29,961 bases of DNA from a virus. Below the pieces are notes generated by a model, which searched no databases, was not told the origin of the DNA, and saw only the letters and a list, made by a program, of their open reading frames with translations. Position numbers and translations under genes: made by a program. The stretch is taken from UHGV virus genome UHGV-0134758; one strand, 5' to 3'. Position 1 is the stretch's first letter. Every line of letters begins with the position of its first letter. Positions 14,844 to 24,162 of the stretch are shown here, piece by piece.

Positions 14844-17800
14844 ATGAACAAGCTATCTATGGGGTTGTTTCGCTGTTCAAGTGTCAGCGAAATATTGAAA
14901 TACATTAGGGCAATAACATCTCATCGAGCGCCGATTAGATACGGCGTGGAAAAGGTGGAAGGCAAAAGCTATGACCGGCTGCGCCGGGAGGCGAATCAGA
15001 AGGCGATAGATTTGCTTAATTCGCTGGTGGACGGCGCGACACTGACAGATGAACAGCGCCAGATCCTGGCCGGGTACACTGGTGAAGGCGGCATTGGCGG
15101 GTCCGTCTCCGAATATTACACACCAAAGCCTATCGCTGAAGGCGTCTGGGAGATCATGAAGCTCTATGGCGCGGACGTAGGTAACACTCTGGAACCATCG
15201 GCGGGCACCGGCGTTTTTAATGAGACAAAACCGGTTGGTACGGTGATGACCGCGACTGAGATCAGCAGTGTTTCCGGTCGTATAAACCAGCTGTTACATC
15301 CGGAAGACAGCGTACAGATTTCCCCGTTCGAACAACTCGCTGTAAGCACGCCTAACGATTCATTCGACCATGTTGTGGGTAACGTTCCGTTCGGCGGTCG
15401 TGATAACACACGCAACATCGATAAGCCTTACGCAGAAGAAACGGATATGGGGTCTTACTTCATGCTCCGCATGCTGGACAAGATAAAGCCAGGCGGATTC
15501 ATGTGTGTGATTGTGCCGCCGTCCATTGTTTCAGGTTCAAACATGAAGCGGTTACGCCTGCGCCTATCACGGAAAGCTGAATTTCTTGGTGCCCACCGCT
15601 TGCCTACCGGTACTTTTGACGCAAACGGGACCAGTACGGTCGTTGACGTGGTGCTGATGCGCAAACATCCGGCGGAGATGGCTGAGAAAATCCCCCTGGT
15701 GGATGAAGGCACTCTTGAATCGGCAAATGTGCTTTGGCCAACGTTTATTTCTGGCAAGTGGTTTGAAAAGGACGGCCGCCGGTTTGTTCATGGCACCCAG
15801 GAGAAGGGATTCCAGGGGCGTATTGAGGTTCGTGCCGACGGGCAGATTGATAACCAGGCTCTTAAAGCGAAGCTGATTCATCGTTTCGAAAGTCGTATCG
15901 ACTGGTCTTTGCTCGATATGGCTGAACCGTCACCGACCGCAGACGTTGTTGGTGAAGGGGAAATACGCCTGATTAATGGCGTATGGCAAAAATATGCTGG
16001 TGGTCGCTGGATTGAATCTGATGCCGGGAAGGAGCTGAAGATTGATGTTGCCAGTTATGGCGCGGATAGCTGGGAGGCTCTTCAGCGTAACCTGACTACA
16101 ACAGAAGGCCGTCTCGGCATGACATTTACCCAGATGGCAAATGTCCGCGATAAGTACACCACATCAATCAGCGACGATATGGTGCAGCTGGTGGACTGGA
16201 TTAACAGCCAGCCTGAAAAATACCGTGAACGCTTGTATCGCGGGGCGATGATTGGCCGGATGTTAATTGAATATCAGGATATGAAGGCCGCCGGGCATAG
16301 TGCTGAACAAATCGAACAGCAGCGCCTTTCCCTGGTATCCCGTTTGCAGGCAGAGATTGACCGTTTTGGTAACCCCGGTCGCGGTCCGATAGCGAAATTA
16401 TCGGGGAGCGGTGCGCGCGCCTGGTTTGCTTTCCGTGGTGCAATTAAGCTGGATGGCACTATTTCTGACGAGCTGACAGGAAAGCTGGTTACGCATGATT
16501 CCAGCGCCAGTTATGACTCCACCAGCTATCAGGACACCCTGCGTTATCTCTACAGTGATCTCACTCGCGATCCAATCCAGCTCGATGATTTCCGCCTTGC
16601 GTTTACCGGCGAACTGCCAGCCAGTGATGACGAGTTGCTTAATTTATTGGCCAGCACCCCTGGCATTGCGGTTTCACCGTATGGCGGGATTGTTCCGTTT
16701 GCCCGCGCCACCAGCGGCGACATTAACGAGATAGTGGCTCCAAAACAGGAATTCCTCGCCACGCTCCCCGACGGTCCAGTAAAGAACAACGTCCTTAATC
16801 AGCTGGCAGCGATCGAAGAGAAGCGCATCAAGACGCCAGCAGAGAATATCCGGTTTAAGCTCAATAGCCGTTGGTTTGACCGTTCCGTCATCCTGGAGTT
16901 TTTGCAGGAAAACGGCTATCCGGATCTGCGCTATGTGCAGTCAGTGCAGCTGGAAGGCGACGAAATGGTTTCTGACACCTATCACGGTGGTGATGGTCTG
17001 TTCGTCGGACACCGATACGGTGTCGTCCAGCGCAAGGATAAAGAAACAGGCGAGATCCGCTACGAGTGGGACCGTAAATCAGGTGAAAACGCGACCGGGT
17101 TCCCGGCACAGCTGGAAAAGTATCTCAATGGTGCGCGTATCGGTGGCAAAGATAGCGCGACGGCGAACGGCTACCGCGAGCAGATGGCACTGCTTGAGGA
17201 CCAGTTCAATAAGTGGATCAAGACGCACGATCGCTACGATGAGCTGGTTGCCAAATACAACGATGTGTTCAATAGCAATATCCCGTATGAACACTCTGGC
17301 GATCCGCTTGGGTTGAAGGGATTAAGCGGTAAGCGCCAGCCATTTGATTACCAGAATAGCGAGGTGCGCCGACTGTCCGAAGATGGGCGCGGCATCCTGG
17401 GCTTCGGCACCGGGCTGGGTAAAACCACGACCGCGCTGGCGCTTGAGGCGTTCAACTATGAGAACGGTCGCTCCACCCGTACTGCGTATGTAGTGCCTAA
17501 ATCAGTGCTGGAAAACTGGTATTACGAAGCAAAAGAATTCCTGAGTGAAGAGGCATTCAGTAACTACCTGTTCGTCGGTCTTGATGTGCTGATGGATGGC
17601 GATCAGATTCGCCAGGTGCCGGTGCTCGATGAGAACGGTAAACCAGTTCTTGGTACTGATGGCACTCCAGTTATGCGCGATGCTCTTAAGCTGGCAGATG
17701 AAGCCACTATCACGGCGCGGATGAACGCGATCCCGCACTCAAATTACCGTGCAGTCGTGTTTACCAAAGAACAATACGCCCGCATTCCGCTACGTGATGA

Positions 17801-20800
17801 CACCGTAGATGAGCATGCACAGGATATGCTTTATGACTTCGTTGCCGCCGGGCGCGTAGCCAGCGCAATGGACTCCGACTCCCACCGCAAAGAGGCCGCG
17901 CGTCGCCGGGTATTATCGGAGTATTCAGATACCGGCACCGAAAAAGCAGAGAAGTATCCGTACTTTGAGGATATGGGCTTCGATAGTGTGATCGCCGACG
18001 AAGGTCACAACTACCGCAATAGCTATAAAAATGGTCGCGAAGCGTCACAACTGGCCTATCTGCCCACCAGCGCGGTGGCGCAATCGGCGCGAGATATGGC
18101 AATCAAAAACGCGTACCTGATGAAAAAGAATGGCGGGCGCGGACCGGTTCTCCTGACTGCAACGCCAGTCGTTAACACCCCGATCGATGCATACAACATG
18201 CTTTCTCATGTTCTGCCGAAGGAATACTGGCAGAAGATGGGGATCTACGGTCCTGATGACTTCGTTAAATTCTTCGGCAAGACCAGGCTGGAAACGGTAC
18301 AGAAAATCAGCGGTGAAGTTGAAGAAAAAATGGCGCTGGTGGGTTTTGAAAACCTTGATGCGCTGCGCGGCATATTCCATCGCTGGACAACGCTTAAAAC
18401 GGCGGAAGACGTTAAGGATACCGTGGAGATCCCGGAGCTGGACGAACACCAGCAGGATGCACCACTTACTGAAGAACAACTGGCGGCGTATGAAGAATTG
18501 CGTCAGCAGGCAGAAGCGGCAGCCAAAGCCAACAATGGCGTAACGACCTCGGTCAATGAAGACGGCGTGATTGAGCACGAGAAAGCCCGTCCGATCTTCT
18601 TAATAATCAGGGATATGGACCGCGTATGTACTGACATGGACCTGTACTATCGCCGGATCACCTATCGTTTCCTGCCGGAGTACGCCGATGCGGTGCAGCA
18701 GCTGGCGGACAGTTTGCCTAAACAAGCCACCAGCGAAGACGACGACAGTGATGATTCTATCACGCAGCAATCGCAATACTCCCTGATAGATAAGGGCGAG
18801 TTTATTCAGTTGCAGGTTCCGGAAGCGTTCGAGCAGGAAGTGAATAAGCGCCTGGCCAGGTTTGGCATTGACGAACAGACCGTTACTCACCCCGTTACGC
18901 CCAAATACGCGAAGCTGATCGCCACGCTGAAGGAGTTTTTCCCGGAAGGTAAGCAAATCATCTTCACCGATGAAAAAACGCAGCACCAGAAGCTCAAGCG
19001 CATTATCTGCAATGCTCTTAACCTTGAACCTTCAAAGGTGGGGATCCTGAATGCTCAGACGGTTGCCGAGGCAGGCAAAACCGGTAAGAAACTGAAAGCG
19101 GTTAAACCGCCGAAAGAGTTACCGGATGAACCAACAGATGCACAGATAGCGAAATACAACGAGCAAATGGCTCTGTATGACGCCTATATCGCGCAGCAAA
19201 ATGAAATGTCGTTGGGCGGTCTGGAAAAGATTGCAGCAGACTTCCAGGAGGGCCGGACTCCGATCATCATCTGCAACAAAAAGGCAGAGGTGGGTATCAA
19301 CCTGCATCGAGGAACGACTGACATCCATCATCTGACGTTGCCGTGGACTCCAGCCAGTATCGCACAACGTAACGGTCGCGGTGCCCGAGTTGGCTCCAAC
19401 CGTGCAAGCGTTCGCGTTCACTACTACTGCGGCAAGGGTTCTTTCGATGAATACCGACTGAAGACGCTGAAGCGTAAAGCAGGCTGGATCTCCGATATCC
19501 TCCGTTCAGATAAGTCAGAAATGGAGAACGCCGACGCCAACGATATGGTCGAAATGCAGATGTATACCGCGAAGGATGACGGCGAACGTCTGGCAATGAT
19601 GCAGGTTCAAATGGATAAGGCGAAAGCCGCGCAACGCGCTCGCCAGAAAGAACAGGCTACTATCGACCTTCAGAACTACATCAAGGCGCAGCACGCAGCT
19701 GGCGAGGATGTGGAGGTACTTACCGCTGAATTAGAGCGAAGCAAAGCGGAACTTGAAAAGACCACCGCCGAGGTAGCTAAATTCAAACAGGCGGTAATGG
19801 CCAAAGCAGCTGATAACGCAGACTGGAAGGCCCGCTGGGGGAGTGTCCATCACACAGACCGTATGTTGTTAGCACAGTATCGCGCGTCGTTGAAAAGCGC
19901 CATTCAGCGCAAGGCTAATATCTCTCAAGCCATCTCCCGCTATGAGAAATTATTGAACCGTACTCAGAAGGCCGCGACGGATATCAAACGCCTGCGCCCG
20001 CTGGTGGAGGATGCAATAAATAAAGGCATTCTGGATGTTGATCCTGACCTGGTTAACCATGCGAGTGAGTTCCTTGTTATCGGCGATCGCTCATGGCGTG
20101 TAGGCCAATACTACGATTGTGCCGGTGATATCGTTCGCATTAAGTCGCTGGACTTCGACAGCCAGCGCGCAGACGTGGAGATCATCTTTACCTTAAAAGG
20201 CACCAAATCGGGTAACTGGGATGTGAAGACGCTGGATAAACAGGTTGATGTAACTCCCGATGAAGATGCTGTTATGCAGAAAATCAGTGGTGGCGTCTCC
20301 ATCGCCGGGATTAACGACATCATTTCCTGTGACGATTTCTACCGTTTCCAGCAGCGCGGCATGATCAAAATCACTGACTCATACGGCGTTCAGACTACAG
20401 AGTCAGGCTATAGCATTGATTTTGTTGGTACCTATACGGACCCGCTGAAGCATGCGGTTTACCCGGATCGCCGTGACGGCGCGCTGAAGTCGTCAATTGC
20501 AAAATGGGTGCTTGGTATGATGTTGGAAGGGAATAACCGCCAGATCCGTTCGGCAGAAACATTCCTGGTTGAACTGTTTGGCTCCAATTATGGCGATGTA
20601 ATCGCGTCATACGGAGATACGCTATCCCCTGAAGCAATTCAGGAGAAAATAGCGGATGCGATCGCCAGAATGCCGGAAAAAACAAGCCAGGGGGCTACTC
20701 GTAACGGGGATTCTGAACTTGAAGTCACCAATGCCATTTTTGGTACCAATGAGTTCCGGGCGTCAGATTATGAGATCACCACAGCACAGTTTGGCACCAT

Positions 20801-21611
20801 TGGCATTTACAGTAATAAAGACGAGATCAAGCAGGCAATGGACGCAGCAAGTGCGCGCATTGCAGCAGAACGGAAAGCCAATCTGAATCATGCAGTCGCC
20901 GCGCTGACTCAATCGTGGGTAACAGCAATCAGGGAGGCCGCCACCACAGGAAAAATCACACCGGCAATTGCGGATGTCGTAAACGACGGCTCTAAATTTA
21001 TGGATGCCTATAAAATGGATGCGGTGCAGTTGCCATCAGCCTATGGCCAACTCAGCTATCGCATGACCTACAACCTGGTATCAATGTTTACTGACCTTGC
21101 CATCCTTGGGCTGGTGGACCTTAACGAGGTTACGCCGGAATTACTCAGCATGCGCAAGAATCATGTGGAGATATTGCACAGAATTAACACGGTACTTGCC
21201 GGGCGCATCGATGAAGAGAAACAGGCAGACGCTGATCGGATAAACCTGGCCCTTGGCAACATCACGGAGGAAGAAATTGCCGCCAGAAACGAGAAACAAG
21301 AAGAGTTATCATCAATACAGGGTGATGCCACCAGCATAGCTCAGTCTCTTGGTCTGAATTATCGCGTATCCACTGCCGACCTGAAGATGATGTACGCACC
21401 AAAATTCGCCGCTGGCGAGGTATTTGGGCTTCAGGAGGCGTCCGGCATGAAAGGCATTCTTTTCCGTGCGAAAGACGCAATCAAGGCGAAATTCGGCGCT
21501 CGCTGGCTGCCAGCGAAGGCAAAGAACAGCGATTTTCCGGGTAACTGGTGGATTATCGAGACAAAACACAACGTGGCGGACGTTCTGGCCGTCATCCAAC
21601 AATACGCATAA
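14844..21611 (+). CDS. darB: DarB-like antirestriction protein: N-terminal N6-adenine methyltransferase domain fused to a superfamily-2 helicase
   Basis: 2255 aa. SAM motif LEPSAGTGVF (nt 15189..15218) and catalytic-type GNVPFGG (nt 15378..15398). Walker A GFGTGLGKTT (approx. residue 850), DEGH (approx. residue 1050) and helicase motif VI QRNGRGARVGS (approx. residue 1510). Length matches P1 DarB from memory. Confidence 0.9.
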   Translation: MNKLSMGLFRCSSVSEILKYIRAITSHRAPIRYGVEKVEGKSYDRLRREANQKAIDLLNSLVDGATLTDEQRQILAGYTGEGGIGGSVSEYYTPKPIAEGVWEIMKLYGADVGNTLEPSAGTGVFNETKPVGTVMTATEISSVSGRINQLLHPEDSVQISPFEQLAVSTPNDSFDHVVGNVPFGGRDNTRNIDKPYAEETDMGSYFMLRMLDKIKPGGFMCVIVPPSIVSGSNMKRLRLRLSRKAEFLGAHRLPTGTFDANGTSTVVDVVLMRKHPAEMAEKIPLVDEGTLESANVLWPTFISGKWFEKDGRRFVHGTQEKGFQGRIEVRADGQIDNQALKAKLIHRFESRIDWSLLDMAEPSPTADVVGEGEIRLINGVWQKYAGGRWIESDAGKELKIDVASYGADSWEALQRNLTTTEGRLGMTFTQMANVRDKYTTSISDDMVQLVDWINSQPEKYRERLYRGAMIGRMLIEYQDMKAAGHSAEQIEQQRLSLVSRLQAEIDRFGNPGRGPIAKLSGSGARAWFAFRGAIKLDGTISDELTGKLVTHDSSASYDSTSYQDTLRYLYSDLTRDPIQLDDFRLAFTGELPASDDELLNLLASTPGIAVSPYGGIVPFARATSGDINEIVAPKQEFLATLPDGPVKNNVLNQLAAIEEKRIKTPAENIRFKLNSRWFDRSVILEFLQENGYPDLRYVQSVQLEGDEMVSDTYHGGDGLFVGHRYGVVQRKDKETGEIRYEWDRKSGENATGFPAQLEKYLNGARIGGKDSATANGYREQMALLEDQFNKWIKTHDRYDELVAKYNDVFNSNIPYEHSGDPLGLKGLSGKRQPFDYQNSEVRRLSEDGRGILGFGTGLGKTTTALALEAFNYENGRSTRTAYVVPKSVLENWYYEAKEFLSEEAFSNYLFVGLDVLMDGDQIRQVPVLDENGKPVLGTDGTPVMRDALKLADEATITARMNAIPHSNYRAVVFTKEQYARIPLRDDTVDEHAQDMLYDFVAAGRVASAMDSDSHRKEAARRRVLSEYSDTGTEKAEKYPYFEDMGFDSVIADEGHNYRNSYKNGREASQLAYLPTSAVAQSARDMAIKNAYLMKKNGGRGPVLLTATPVVNTPIDAYNMLSHVLPKEYWQKMGIYGPDDFVKFFGKTRLETVQKISGEVEEKMALVGFENLDALRGIFHRWTTLKTAEDVKDTVEIPELDEHQQDAPLTEEQLAAYEELRQQAEAAAKANNGVTTSVNEDGVIEHEKARPIFLIIRDMDRVCTDMDLYYRRITYRFLPEYADAVQQLADSLPKQATSEDDDSDDSITQQSQYSLIDKGEFIQLQVPEAFEQEVNKRLARFGIDEQTVTHPVTPKYAKLIATLKEFFPEGKQIIFTDEKTQHQKLKRIICNALNLEPSKVGILNAQTVAEAGKTGKKLKAVKPPKELPDEPTDAQIAKYNEQMALYDAYIAQQNEMSLGGLEKIAADFQEGRTPIIICNKKAEVGINLHRGTTDIHHLTLPWTPASIAQRNGRGARVGSNRASVRVHYYCGKGSFDEYRLKTLKRKAGWISDILRSDKSEMENADANDMVEMQMYTAKDDGERLAMMQVQMDKAKAAQRARQKEQATIDLQNYIKAQHAAGEDVEVLTAELERSKAELEKTTAEVAKFKQAVMAKAADNADWKARWGSVHHTDRMLLAQYRASLKSAIQRKANISQAISRYEKLLNRTQKAATDIKRLRPLVEDAINKGILDVDPDLVNHASEFLVIGDRSWRVGQYYDCAGDIVRIKSLDFDSQRADVEIIFTLKGTKSGNWDVKTLDKQVDVTPDEDAVMQKISGGVSIAGINDIISCDDFYRFQQRGMIKITDSYGVQTTESGYSIDFVGTYTDPLKHAVYPDRRDGALKSSIAKWVLGMMLEGNNRQIRSAETFLVELFGSNYGDVIASYGDTLSPEAIQEKIADAIARMPEKTSQGATRNGDSELEVTNAIFGTNEFRASDYEITTAQFGTIGIYSNKDEIKQAMDAASARIAAERKANLNHAVAALTQSWVTAIREAATTGKITPAIADVVNDGSKFMDAYKMDAVQLPSAYGQLSYRMTYNLVSMFTDLAILGLVDLNEVTPELLSMRKNHVEILHRINTVLAGRIDEEKQADADRINLALGNITEEEIAARNEKQEELSSIQGDATSIAQSLGLNYRVSTADLKMMYAPKFAAGEVFGLQEASGMKGILFRAKDAIKAKFGARWLPAKAKNSDFPGNWWIIETKHNVADVLAVIQQYA

Positions 21612-21644: not shown

Positions 21645-22085
21645 ATGGCCACACTATCTGATACAATAAAACCGAATAAAACATATCTTGAGGCGGTACT
21701 CCGTACAGCGTTGTTAGGAAAGACAGAAGACGAATACGTTGATTTCTTCCTATCAGGGCTACGCGGGCGATTACTGAAAAACCCCCGCCTGTACCGCAGC
21801 TATGGCCCATACTGGCCGGAAATTAAAAAATTATTACTGGAGCGCGGTTATGGTAATTTCGGTCGTCTCGTTGACCGTGACGTTCGCAAAATTTACCGTT
21901 ATGACCGCCCGGCGCTAACACTCATAGCCGCGACGCTCTACAGCCAGGAGCGTTTTGATAATGGTCAGATATACTCAGCCTGGCATTTACTGCCAGTGCC
22001 TGAAGAAGTTGACGACCAGGACTATGAGTTTGAGTCTTACGATTTGGAAGTTGAAGCCTTGGCACAGGCTGGAGAGAAAACTTGA
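21645..22085 (+). CDS. hypothetical protein (position of P1 ulx)
   Basis: 146-aa ORF starting 34 nt after darB; preceded by a GC hairpin with a UUCG-type loop. Confidence 0.5.
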   Translation: MATLSDTIKPNKTYLEAVLRTALLGKTEDEYVDFFLSGLRGRLLKNPRLYRSYGPYWPEIKKLLLERGYGNFGRLVDRDVRKIYRYDRPALTLIAATLYSQERFDNGQIYSAWHLLPVPEEVDDQDYEFESYDLEVEALAQAGEKT

Positions 22086-22330
22086 AAAAGCGATACTACA
22101 CAGTAAAGCATGGGACGCTACGGGCATTACAAGAGTTTGCTGACAAGCATAACGTTGAGGTGCGCAGGGAAGGGGGAAGTAAAGCTCTGCGCATGTACCG
22201 TCCGGACGGGAAATGGCGTACGGTCGTCGATTTCAAAACTAACAGTGTTCCCCAAGGTGTCCGCGATCGGGCATTCGAAGAATGGGAGCAGATCATCATA
22301 GATAACGCATTGCTTCTGAATGCTGATTAA
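22082..22330 (+). CDS. small protein (position of P1 lxc)
   Basis: 82 aa, TTG start overlapping the previous stop (TTGA), GGAGAG 5 nt upstream. Confidence 0.45.
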   Translation: MKKRYYTVKHGTLRALQEFADKHNVEVRREGGSKALRMYRPDGKWRTVVDFKTNSVPQGVRDRAFEEWEQIIIDNALLLNAD

Positions 22331-22382
22331 TAATCATTTAAAGCCCATATGATATGGGCTTAAACAACAGGATCGATATACA

Positions 22383-23423
22383 GTGTTAGTTAAATATATA
22401 GGCGAGAGTTATATGGATAAACCTTGGCCGGGCATGCACATTAGAACATCTTGTCTGGAGGATGGTTTCTTTAGAGCAACGCAACCAAAGTATCTTAATG
22501 ATCCGTCGAGTGAGTCGCGACTTCTTCCATTTTTTAATAAATTTTCACCAGCCGATTACGCATGGGCTAGAAATGAATTTAAGAAAATGCAACGAGATCC
22601 ATCTTATGTCCCATCTATACAAGAGTTAGAGTATTATTTAAAACCTTGCGGGAAACGATACGGAGAGGATTTTCCACACTTGTTAATCAATGAAGGTTTT
22701 ACCTCAATGGATTCATATGATGAATCTAAACTCCAAGAAATAGTAACGTACCTTAACGATTATTTAGTAGAAGCCGTAAGCTGTCATCTTGGTGTGTTCT
22801 CTCTATCAAAAAGTGATTGCAATCTACACATGTGGACTCATTATGCATCGATAGGAAAGGGGTTTGCTGTAGTTTTCGATGAAACACACGATTTTTTCAA
22901 AATATATCGGCCGTGTGATGTTAGTTATAATCCAGAAGATAGAGCATCTGTAACCTATTATAAAGGCGCTGTGCGATTTAATGGCTATCCTGCGCCATCG
23001 AGGAATATAGATATAAAGAATAAAGATAATACATTGCATGGGATCTTAAATCGAGATTCAGTTCGCGAGCTTTTTATTAATAGGCTTCTTTATACAAAAG
23101 GTGAAGAGTGGCTTCCTGAAAATGAAAGTAGAATTATTTTTCCATTGGCTGATTGCGAGAGAAAAATAGGAAGTATTGTCTCTCCATCGATTGATGACTG
23201 CCTATTAAATGAGTATCCTGATGTTTTTCATGACTATCATGAAATTAACTTAAAGAAAATTCCTTTTTCTGCATTCAAGCAAATTACCTTAGGGTATAAC
23301 ATGACTGAAAAAGATAAAAATATAATTTTAGATAAAGTTAGTTCGAATAAAGAATTGTCTCACGTCAACGTATTACATTCAAAACTTGATATATACGGAA
23401 AGGTTGTGGTTAAGCCCATGTAA
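22383..23423 (+). CDS. DUF2971-like protein of unknown function; candidate single-gene anti-phage defence / abortive-infection cargo
   Basis: Markedly AT-rich 346-codon ORF (alternative ATG at 22413). Motifs FRATQPKYLNDPSSE and CNLHMWTHYASIGKGFAVVFD resemble the two DUF2971 signature blocks as I recall them. Isolated between the lxc-position ORF and the convergent mat-position ORF. Confidence 0.7.
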   Translation: MLVKYIGESYMDKPWPGMHIRTSCLEDGFFRATQPKYLNDPSSESRLLPFFNKFSPADYAWARNEFKKMQRDPSYVPSIQELEYYLKPCGKRYGEDFPHLLINEGFTSMDSYDESKLQEIVTYLNDYLVEAVSCHLGVFSLSKSDCNLHMWTHYASIGKGFAVVFDETHDFFKIYRPCDVSYNPEDRASVTYYKGAVRFNGYPAPSRNIDIKNKDNTLHGILNRDSVRELFINRLLYTKGEEWLPENESRIIFPLADCERKIGSIVSPSIDDCLLNEYPDVFHDYHEINLKKIPFSAFKQITLGYNMTEKDKNIILDKVSSNKELSHVNVLHSKLDIYGKVVVKPM

Positions 23424-23455
23424 TAATACGCTTATGTCTACACTTCATGATAAAT

Positions 23456-23477
23456 ACCTTCCTTAACTTAGGAAGGT
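23456..23477. terminator. hairpin (accttcc-ttaactta-ggaaggt) between convergent genes
   Basis: Lies between the stop of the 346-aa ORF (23423) and the stop of the minus-strand ORF (23521); the following sequence is T-rich. Confidence 0.4.
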
Positions 23478-23520
23478 TAGTTGTAGGTTTACGCAGAAAG
23501 TAACAAATAACCTTCGTAGG

Positions 23521-24162
23521 TTATAGAATATTATTCTTTCCGGTGAGTATTCCTTGAGGAACTCTAGCGCATCCCATAATTTGAGTTTTCTTGATGATGT
23601 TTATATATGACGCTATCAGCGATGAGTCATCACGACTATCCACTTCACAAGCCATTGCCCTGATGTAGTCGGCGCTGGCAACGTTGTTGTATTCCGTCGC
23701 AAAGCAACAGAGTAACGTCAGAACATGCTCTGTCGTTATTTCGCTCCAGTTGATGTTGAAAAATTCATCGCCTTTTTTATCGTGTTCGGAATCGAAGATG
23801 CTTTGGTGGAGGATGTATTTGCCGGATTCCTTGCGCGGTAACTTGATTGCTTTCTGGCGTTCCAGCTCCTTATAAATCTGCATTGCCTCAATTAGTACCG
23901 GCCTGCCGTTCATGAAGGGATCGCGCAACCTTACACGCTGGCCAACTCGACCAGTAATAAAGCTGTTTTCCTCTTCCACCAGCACGATAAAACCCTTTTC
24001 CTCTTTTTCTCGCAATTCGCGCAGCAGCTGGAGTTCCATGTCGCGGCGGCGTTCAGGGTAGCTGGTCCGCTCAGCCATTATCAGCTCGTTATTGATCCAT
24101 GCAGCAGTCATTGACGCCGGTTTGCCGACGCTCATCGAAACAACGCATATTTTCTTATCCAT
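23521..24162 (-). CDS. hypothetical protein (position of P1 mat, particle maturation)
   Basis: ATG at 24162 with AGGGG 5 nt upstream (the track's GTG start is at 24189). The late-promoter-like motif lies about 140 nt upstream. Confidence 0.5.
   Translation of the reverse strand: MDKKICVVSMSVGKPASMTAAWINNELIMAERTSYPERRRDMELQLLRELREKEEKGFIVLVEEENSFITGRVGQRVRLRDPFMNGRPVLIEAMQIYKELERQKAIKLPRKESGKYILHQSIFDSEHDKKGDEFFNINWSEITTEHVLTLLCCFATEYNNVASADYIRAMACEVDSRDDSSLIASYINIIKKTQIMGCARVPQGILTGKNNIL

Follow-up and report, generated by a model that had tools for sequence, protein, structure and literature searches.

What is the function of the single AT-rich gene that occupies, in a P1-like phage-plasmid, the place of the restriction-modification (R-M) genes of P1? 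This question is raised by a stretch of 29,961 nucleotides from the UHGV virus genome UHGV-0134758, referred to here as the window. It represents a P1-like phage-plasmid that reads in the opposite direction to the P1 map, with the gene order darB, ulx, lxc, an open reading frame (ORF) of 346 codons, the convergent mat, and then ref and cre. The ORF (22383-23423 on the plus strand, stop codon included) encodes a DUF2971 protein which, judged from its sequence and setting, is probably a single-gene anti-phage defence system of the abortive-infection (Abi) type, expressed from the plasmid prophage. The original prediction, made without database searches, had described an uncharacterised defence candidate. 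Its status as a candidate is supported by context and homology, but the word uncharacterised fits the subfamily and not the kind of protein. The DUF2971 kind is already known, as is the RefSeq label "DUF2971 domain-containing protein" on identical plasmid copies; what is new is the subfamily member in the P1 slot and the catalogue of cargo that this slot carries.

The assignment to DUF2971 (PF11185) is based on a Pfam match of 28.4 bits (gathering score 22, E = 4.2e-6), which covers residues 150-251 and positions 1-89 of the 89 profile positions. A resemblance to this family had been suspected from two peptides, FRATQPKYLNDPSSE and CNLHMWTHYASIGKGFAVVFD, which are located at residues 30-44 and 146-166, and the score above the gathering threshold bears this out. 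DUF2971 is the sole Pfam match of the protein, and the search returned no nuclease, ATPase or methyltransferase family, in line with the absence of such motifs reported earlier. NCBIfam gave no match, and PHROG 1762, for which the function is listed as unknown, matched at 2e-71. The statement that DUF2971 has no established function is outdated, as the family is now a predicted ADP-ribosyltransferase (ART) family (PMC12522546) and includes the Abi system Aristaios (PMC11381338).

Within the ARTs, DUF2971 has been placed nearest to DarT, AbiGi and scabin. Its members harbor a strictly conserved Tyr and an E-x-E in motif III, show a poorly conserved motif I, and carry large helical inserts at beta-1/beta-2 and beta-4/beta-5 (PMC12522546). 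The predicted model of the 346-residue protein shows the ART fold, a split beta-sheet that forms the NAD+-binding core, and the structures most similar to it are those of DarT, Tpt1 and scabin. R31 is positioned on the strand formed by residues 29-33, and residues 56-135 form a helical insert. Strand 136-142 ends in S140-L-S142 and is followed by a helix carrying M150-W-T-H-Y154, and strand 248-254 is opened by E246-x-E248. The insert positions agree with those described for the family (PMC12522546). Based on the model we propose that R31 represents ART motif I, that residues 140-155 form the motif II region and that E246-x-E248 is the catalytic motif III; the E-x-E at the opening of beta-5, E246-N-E248, is invariant in 41 homologues. 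Foldseek searches against the PDB and a viral structure library returned no significant match, and a sequence-profile search of PDB sequences found no solved relative, only a chance-level match to 2qp2 (E = 0.5). Thus the ART fold is consistent with the evidence, which is not overwhelming. Weak fold matches to tRNA-splicing-endonuclease-like folds cover a stretch of 55-65 residues that the search did not locate on the protein; our guess is that it lies in residues 267-346. NAD+-dependent ADP-ribosylation is a prediction, which we hold with somewhat less confidence than the defensive role itself.

The residues assigned to these motifs are conserved. A database search yielded 96 full-length homologues of about 350 amino acids. 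One cluster at 99% identity, with 839 sequences, represents the P1-borne allele, and the other homologues, from Klebsiella, Serratia, Salmonella, Enterobacter, Citrobacter, Vibrio, Shewanella and others, share at most 53% identity with it. The profile of 41 homologues matched 8734 cluster representatives at E <= 1e-3 and only 39 at E <= 1e-30; the group of about 350 residues is therefore a small subfamily of a very large family. Among the 41 homologues (36-53% identity) 33 positions are invariant, including R31, T33, P35, N39, D40, E44, S140, M150, W151, Y154, G158, G160, E246, E248 and R250 as well as P294, G304, L325 and H327 in the C-terminal part. On the plus strand of the window, the most conserved block, F-R-x-T-Q-P-x-x-L-N-D-x-x-x-E (residues 30-44), with the invariant R31 on its beta-strand, corresponds to 22470-22514. 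Residues 140-155, with S140-L-S142 at the end of one strand and M150-W-T-H-Y154-A on the next helix, are encoded at 22800-22847, and E-N-E-S-R (residues 246-250), the invariant E-x-E-x-R that opens a beta-strand, at 23118-23132. A C-terminal alpha/beta subdomain follows at residues 267-346 (23181-23420, plus strand).

This subdomain is missing from a distant relative, the 252-residue protein SSU5_037, which aligns to residues 1-266 only, at 26% identity; residues 267-346 are therefore specific to the subfamily. SSU5_037 keeps R31, W151, Y154, E246, E248 and R250, and reads IRATRPHDFNDP in the block corresponding to residues 30-44. MWSHYA and ExE.R are retained, and a Cys is found at the position of S140, with C-L-T replacing S-L-S. 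The short form is carried by SSU5-like phage-plasmids of about 110 kb from Salmonella, Klebsiella, Enterobacter and E. coli; in SSU5 its gene (locus L023, 3001-3759) is flanked by a parA-like and a dnaB-like gene. Distant matches of the SSU5 type occur in about 180 plasmid records, and this form seems to be far commoner within its own family of elements than the P1 cargo.

One of the closest systems that have been described is Aristaios. It consists of a 316-residue DUF2971 protein encoded on the Lactococcus plasmid pUCCL641, has an ART-like predicted fold and was validated experimentally as an Abi-like system made up of one gene (Grafakou et al. 2024, PMC11381338). The P1-borne gene shares the single-gene design, the DUF2971 assignment and the predicted fold, but is found in Enterobacteria instead of Firmicutes and encodes a protein that is 30 residues longer. 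Aristaios was reported to interfere with phage transcription (2026 review, PMC13064643). Together with the structural neighbours DarT, Tpt1 and scabin, this suggests nucleic acid as a possible target, although we consider such a target doubtful rather than probable. PADLOC, in turn, returned matches to four models of PDC-S31 (E = 3.2e-16, 2.4e-14, 9.4e-11 and 1.4e-6), likewise a single-gene DUF2971-type candidate. The PDC systems comprise 145 untested candidates, identified because their genes lie inside BREX, DISARM or type I R-M loci (bioRxiv 10.1101/2024.01.29.577857). PDC-S31 was defined from genes in such loci, whereas the present gene comes from a phage-plasmid slot. The protein is probably a distant relative of both Aristaios and PDC-S31. 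It is not a member of DarTG, despite DarT being structurally nearest, because a DarG macrodomain is neither fused to it, DUF2971 being the only Pfam match, nor encoded next to it, where lxc and mat are found.

The position of the gene is a further line of evidence. In canonical P1 (NC_005856) the order is mat, res, mod, lxc, and P7 is arranged likewise, which agrees with the original prediction. Neither res nor mod is present in the window, where the interval between lxc and the convergent mat holds one ORF without a methyltransferase or helicase domain. The slot of P1 and P7 harbors their type III R-M genes (res/mod), and that of RCS47 is empty (39 bp). In SJ46 (KU760857; locus L003, 1269-2390) it is occupied by a 373-residue RelA/SpoT protein, for which PDB 7ZTB gave a match along the entire sequence and PDC-S33 a further one. 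JL22 and an E. albertii plasmid carry a PIN_12 protein matching PDC-S34, and further plasmids carry a SIR2 protein that matches the ThsA, PDC-S25 and LmuA models. Other occupants are a 202-residue GNAT acetyltransferase (CP012494; L011, 1014-1622), a pair of YaaC (PF14175) and a 169-residue nucleoside-deoxyribosyltransferase-like protein (NZ_CP041960; L012, 990-2539) and, on an E. albertii plasmid (NZ_CP043264; L014, 980-1378), a 132-residue ORF without a domain. The 169-residue partner of YaaC matches nucleoside 2-deoxyribosyltransferase weakly, with 22.1 bits, below the Pfam cut-off of 28.8 bits. No PADLOC match was obtained for the YaaC pair, the GNAT protein or the 132-residue ORF, which are plausible candidate defence genes. 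The lxc-mat interval is thus an exchangeable cargo slot with one cassette at a time, as had been supposed. Searches of the accessible literature returned no description of a defence hotspot at lxc-mat or elsewhere in P1, and nothing specific on PDC-S31.

Two of the occupants allow a direct comparison. EcoP1I and EcoP7I lie in the same slot and are transcribed in the direction of lxc, like the DUF2971 gene. They protect the lysogen. They differ from the DUF2971 gene in being two-gene systems of about 5 kb that act by DNA methylation and cleavage, and they share no homology with its protein. PDB 7ZTB, named in the database only as a "RelA/SpoT family protein", we take to be CapRelSJ46. In that case the lxc-mat slot of a sister phage-plasmid houses a defence protein that has been studied in depth, a link that was not found in the searchable literature. 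CapRelSJ46 is a single-polypeptide defence without a separate antitoxin and provides a precedent for a design in which sensor and autoinhibitor are fused to the enzyme; it differs in being a RelA/SpoT-type pyrophosphokinase and not an ART, and in its transcription from the opposite strand.

The DUF2971 cargo is not a conserved core gene; had it been one, this would have spoken against the proposal. It is present in 85 of 704 P1-like plasmids and, among 5426 complete E. coli genomes, in 63 of the 699 that contain a P1-like ulx-lxc. About 9-12% of P1-like elements therefore carry it, always at an identity of at least 98%. All but two of the E. coli cargo records are at least 99% identical, and 64 of 65 copies are located on plasmids. 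The sole chromosomal copy (NZ_LR134247.1, 2156203-2157392; E. coli NCTC9040) presumably belongs to an integrated P1-like element. The GenBank "phage P1" records MH422554 (L001, 2284-3324) and MH445380 contain the ORF with 98.8% amino acid identity and leave it unannotated, and surveys based on annotation would consequently miss it.

Outside P1-like elements, homologues of the subfamily occur as lone genes on mobile elements in a variety of settings. A P2-like prophage of Salmonella carries a copy by itself (L008/L009, 8001-9050) between its tail genes gpV and gpS and on the strand opposite to them, a position that looks like a moron slot. In Serratia the gene is found near smpB at the end of a prophage, with a PDC-S64 match at a distance of about 2 kb. 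One Klebsiella lineage carries its copy within an AlpA/H-NS island, another in a chromosomal islet beside a HEC-04-like ABC-ATPase (E = 7e-42); HEC-04 is a validated defence type (bioRxiv 10.1101/2024.01.29.577857). The Vibrio homologue (L019, 8001-10100) is encoded on a conjugative plasmid and directly followed by a PIN_12 gene. The two families that stand side by side on this plasmid are families that alternate in the P1 slot. In the contexts examined the neighbours differ every time and a conserved partner was never seen, a pattern characteristic of a self-sufficient module that consists of one gene and travels on mobile elements.

If the protein is such a module, it would have to restrain itself, since no antitoxin gene or RNA was found at the locus. 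The enzyme might be kept silent, perhaps through its own C-terminal subdomain (residues 267-346), for which a role as sensor or autoinhibitory module is speculation on our part. Infection by another phage would then activate the enzyme, which would use NAD+ to ADP-ribosylate a target, perhaps nucleic acid. Phage gene expression or replication would be blocked as a result, and growth of the host probably as well.

Several observations weigh against a defensive role. An ART toxin without an antitoxin must be controlled somehow. The slot also holds the GNAT and YaaC cassettes, which have no defence annotation, so that its position is suggestive and not diagnostic. Sequence similarity to Aristaios is probably at the level of the Pfam family only, and a tblastn search against plasmids gave no Lactococcus among the genera named in its output, which left seven further genera unnamed. 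The PDC-S31 matches are partial: the best model covers residues 120-183 with 64 of its 273 positions, and the widest residues 118-324 with 147 of 259. This indicates that the subfamily is a divergent relative and not a core member of PDC-S31. In addition, expression of the gene in the lysogen is assumed. A promoter scan of the upstream plus strand detected no sigma-70-like site, and directly after lxc a stem-loop of 9 bp (22341-22361, plus strand; centroid -12.1 kcal/mol, z = -2.1) intervenes before the ORF. As no T-run follows it, this structure may be a weak terminator, an attenuator or part of the 5' untranslated region. Possible sources of expression are read-through from lxc promoters or a weak hybrid promoter at the position of P2mod. 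In P1 the annotated P2mod promoter (L021, 9747-9775) has its -35 element within lxc and a -10 element that overlaps the lxc stop codon. The equivalent position in the window (22305-22333) reads ACGCAT-17-TAATAA, which is too weak to be called. The conserved lxc flank may in this way supply half a promoter to the inserted cargo.

Phage ARTs that modify host proteins are established, for instance Alt, ModA and ModB of T4. The DUF2971 protein could therefore serve the phage-plasmid itself as a factor for host takeover, counter-defence or exclusion, perhaps together with darB and ulx. The gene lies directly 3' of darB-ulx-lxc on the same strand, Ulx and DarB are annotated in P1 as Ulx-like anti-restriction and as defence against restriction, homologues are found in prophages, and PHROG 1762 is matched. 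However, the copies on the conjugative plasmid, in the AlpA island and in the HEC-04-like islet have no phage lytic genes nearby, and the copy in the P2-like prophage is moron-like, running against the direction of the late tail genes. R-M systems and a presumed CapRelSJ46, which protect the lysogen, are found in the lxc-mat slot, and a gene present in only 9-12% of P1-like elements does not fit a function of this kind. A benefit to the phage is thus improbable. We assign a slightly lower probability to a passenger gene, an ART-like fold without ADP-ribosylation activity or a selected function in P1, which was carried along when a mat-proximal segment recombined in from a P1-like relative that had diverged. 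The foreign nature of the entire segment including the mat tail would be explained in this way, as would the empty promoter scan and the lack of a significant Foldseek match, and motif I is poorly conserved in DUF2971 (PMC12522546). A passenger would not, however, be expected to stay intact, with an identity of 98% or more, in some 85 plasmids and 63 genomes, or to keep 33 invariant positions including E-x-E at 36-53% identity. The window differs from the gene of MH422554 by five synonymous and three non-synonymous codons, an excess of synonymous changes, and mobile elements of several kinds have acquired the gene independently.

Very unlikely is a role in lysogenic conversion or virulence, with the protein acting as an ART toxin against eukaryotic or competitor cells. 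This reading draws on the toxin character of the predicted fold, but no secretion, Rhs, type VI secretion or immunity gene is adjacent to the ORF, which is separated from its neighbours by gaps of 52 bp (lxc side) and 97 bp (mat side), and the neighbourhoods of the homologues resemble defence or phage regions and not secretion-system loci. The least probable explanation is that the gene is an addiction toxin which stabilizes the P1-like plasmid by post-segregational killing. DarT-like ARTs do act as toxins of toxin-antitoxin systems (PMC12522546), and R-M systems such as those of the lxc-mat slot can act as addiction modules (PMC10879196). An antitoxin ORF or RNA is nevertheless missing, given the empty Rfam search, the lack of direct repeats and the tiny intergenic gaps, and homologues are also found on chromosomes and in prophages. 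Taken together, these explanations are less likely than abortive-infection defence mainly for three reasons: homologues occur in contexts other than phages, the ORF is intact and conserved, and partners for secretion or an antitoxin are absent.

If the gene does defend the lysogen, ART defence of the Aristaios type would be known not only from dairy lactococci but also from phage-plasmids found commonly in E. coli and Salmonella, and a tractable E. coli model would become available for the silencing and triggering of a DarT-like enzyme without an antitoxin. Independently of this gene, the cargo of the slot alters the phage sensitivity of lysogens, which matters wherever P1-like elements are involved in transduction or phage therapy. 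The catalogue of lxc-mat cargo is the more useful by-product. As the slot already holds two established defences, the EcoP1I-type R-M system and what is presumably CapRelSJ46, its unannotated occupants are cheap defence candidates with a high prior. A combined proposal is tentative and rather unlikely to hold in all its parts: the enterobacterial subfamily of about 350 residues would be a free-standing DarT-like ART that acts on nucleic acid and requires no antitoxin, in which the C-terminal subdomain both autoinhibits and senses a phage trigger, as in CapRelSJ46; about 13% of complete E. coli genomes would possess in lxc-mat a defence hotspot that takes a single cassette; and YaaC with its NDT-like partner, the GNAT protein and the 132-residue ORF would be new defence systems.

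The gene follows darB (14844-21611), ulx (21645-22085) and lxc (22082-22330), the conserved left flank, all on the plus strand. The mat gene is encoded on the minus strand from 24162, the start used in annotated homologues (MDKKICVV), to its stop at 23521, and its conserved body (23639-24162) forms the right flank. Use of the GTG start codon at 22383 is backed by the N-terminus MLVKY, conserved in 41 homologues, and by an AGGA resembling a ribosome-binding site 10 nt upstream (22369-22372, plus strand), as read from the sequence. The layout of one ORF between lxc and convergent mat was found as described earlier. The pronounced AT-richness that had been noticed is reflected in a GC content of 0.354 for the ORF and 0.489 for the rest of the window; GC at third codon positions is 0.285 in the ORF and 0.58 in darB. 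No other 1.3-kb stretch of the window has a lower GC content (z = -3.7 in comparison with non-overlapping windows). The gene is of foreign origin.

The foreign segment is longer than the interval 22331-23520 given in the original prediction. On the left, nine relatives share 96.7-98.8% identity with the lxc flank as far as 22328-22333, where unrelated sequence takes over, so that P1-like homology breaks exactly after the lxc stop codon. On the right, homology restarts at 23639 in seven of eight relatives whose slot is different or empty; in the eighth, the E. albertii plasmid with the 132-residue ORF, it restarts at 23537 with 91% identity. The last 39 codons of mat are therefore part of the swapped segment, which extends over 1308 bp (22331-23638, GC 0.353). 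Apart from the DUF2971 gene and the diverged 3' end of mat, this segment includes two hairpins, the second of them terminator-like. It contains no second ORF besides the DUF2971 gene. The terminator-like hairpin (23456-23477) is a GC-containing structure of 8 bp between the two convergent genes and resembles a bidirectional terminator. Rfam and repeat searches detected no RNA match, no direct repeats and no repeat array, and an RNA antitoxin (type III toxin-antitoxin system) was dropped from consideration.

An imperfect inverted repeat of 19 nt with 84% complementarity (22348-22366 and 23407-23425) brackets the ORF almost exactly, with one arm in the upstream hairpin and the other at the stop codon, and contains a perfect core of 10 bp (ATGGGCTTAA and TTAAGCCCAT). 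It was rejected as a cassette boundary and is probably a coincidence, because about one such 10-bp core is expected in 1.6 kb. The other cargo types each have their own, different hairpin at the position after lxc. The diverged tail of mat (23521-23638, minus strand) holds the right-hand recombination boundary; it is homologous but diverged in comparison with relatives (L002-L004, L010-L014, L021, L022), has a GC content of 0.364, compared with 0.49 in the rest of mat, and varies with the type of cargo. One tail is common to the PIN carriers and another to P1, P7, RCS47 and the SIR2 carriers, and the tail of the present window is the most divergent. This may reflect a functional link between Mat and the cargo, or the tail may merely mark the zone of crossover.

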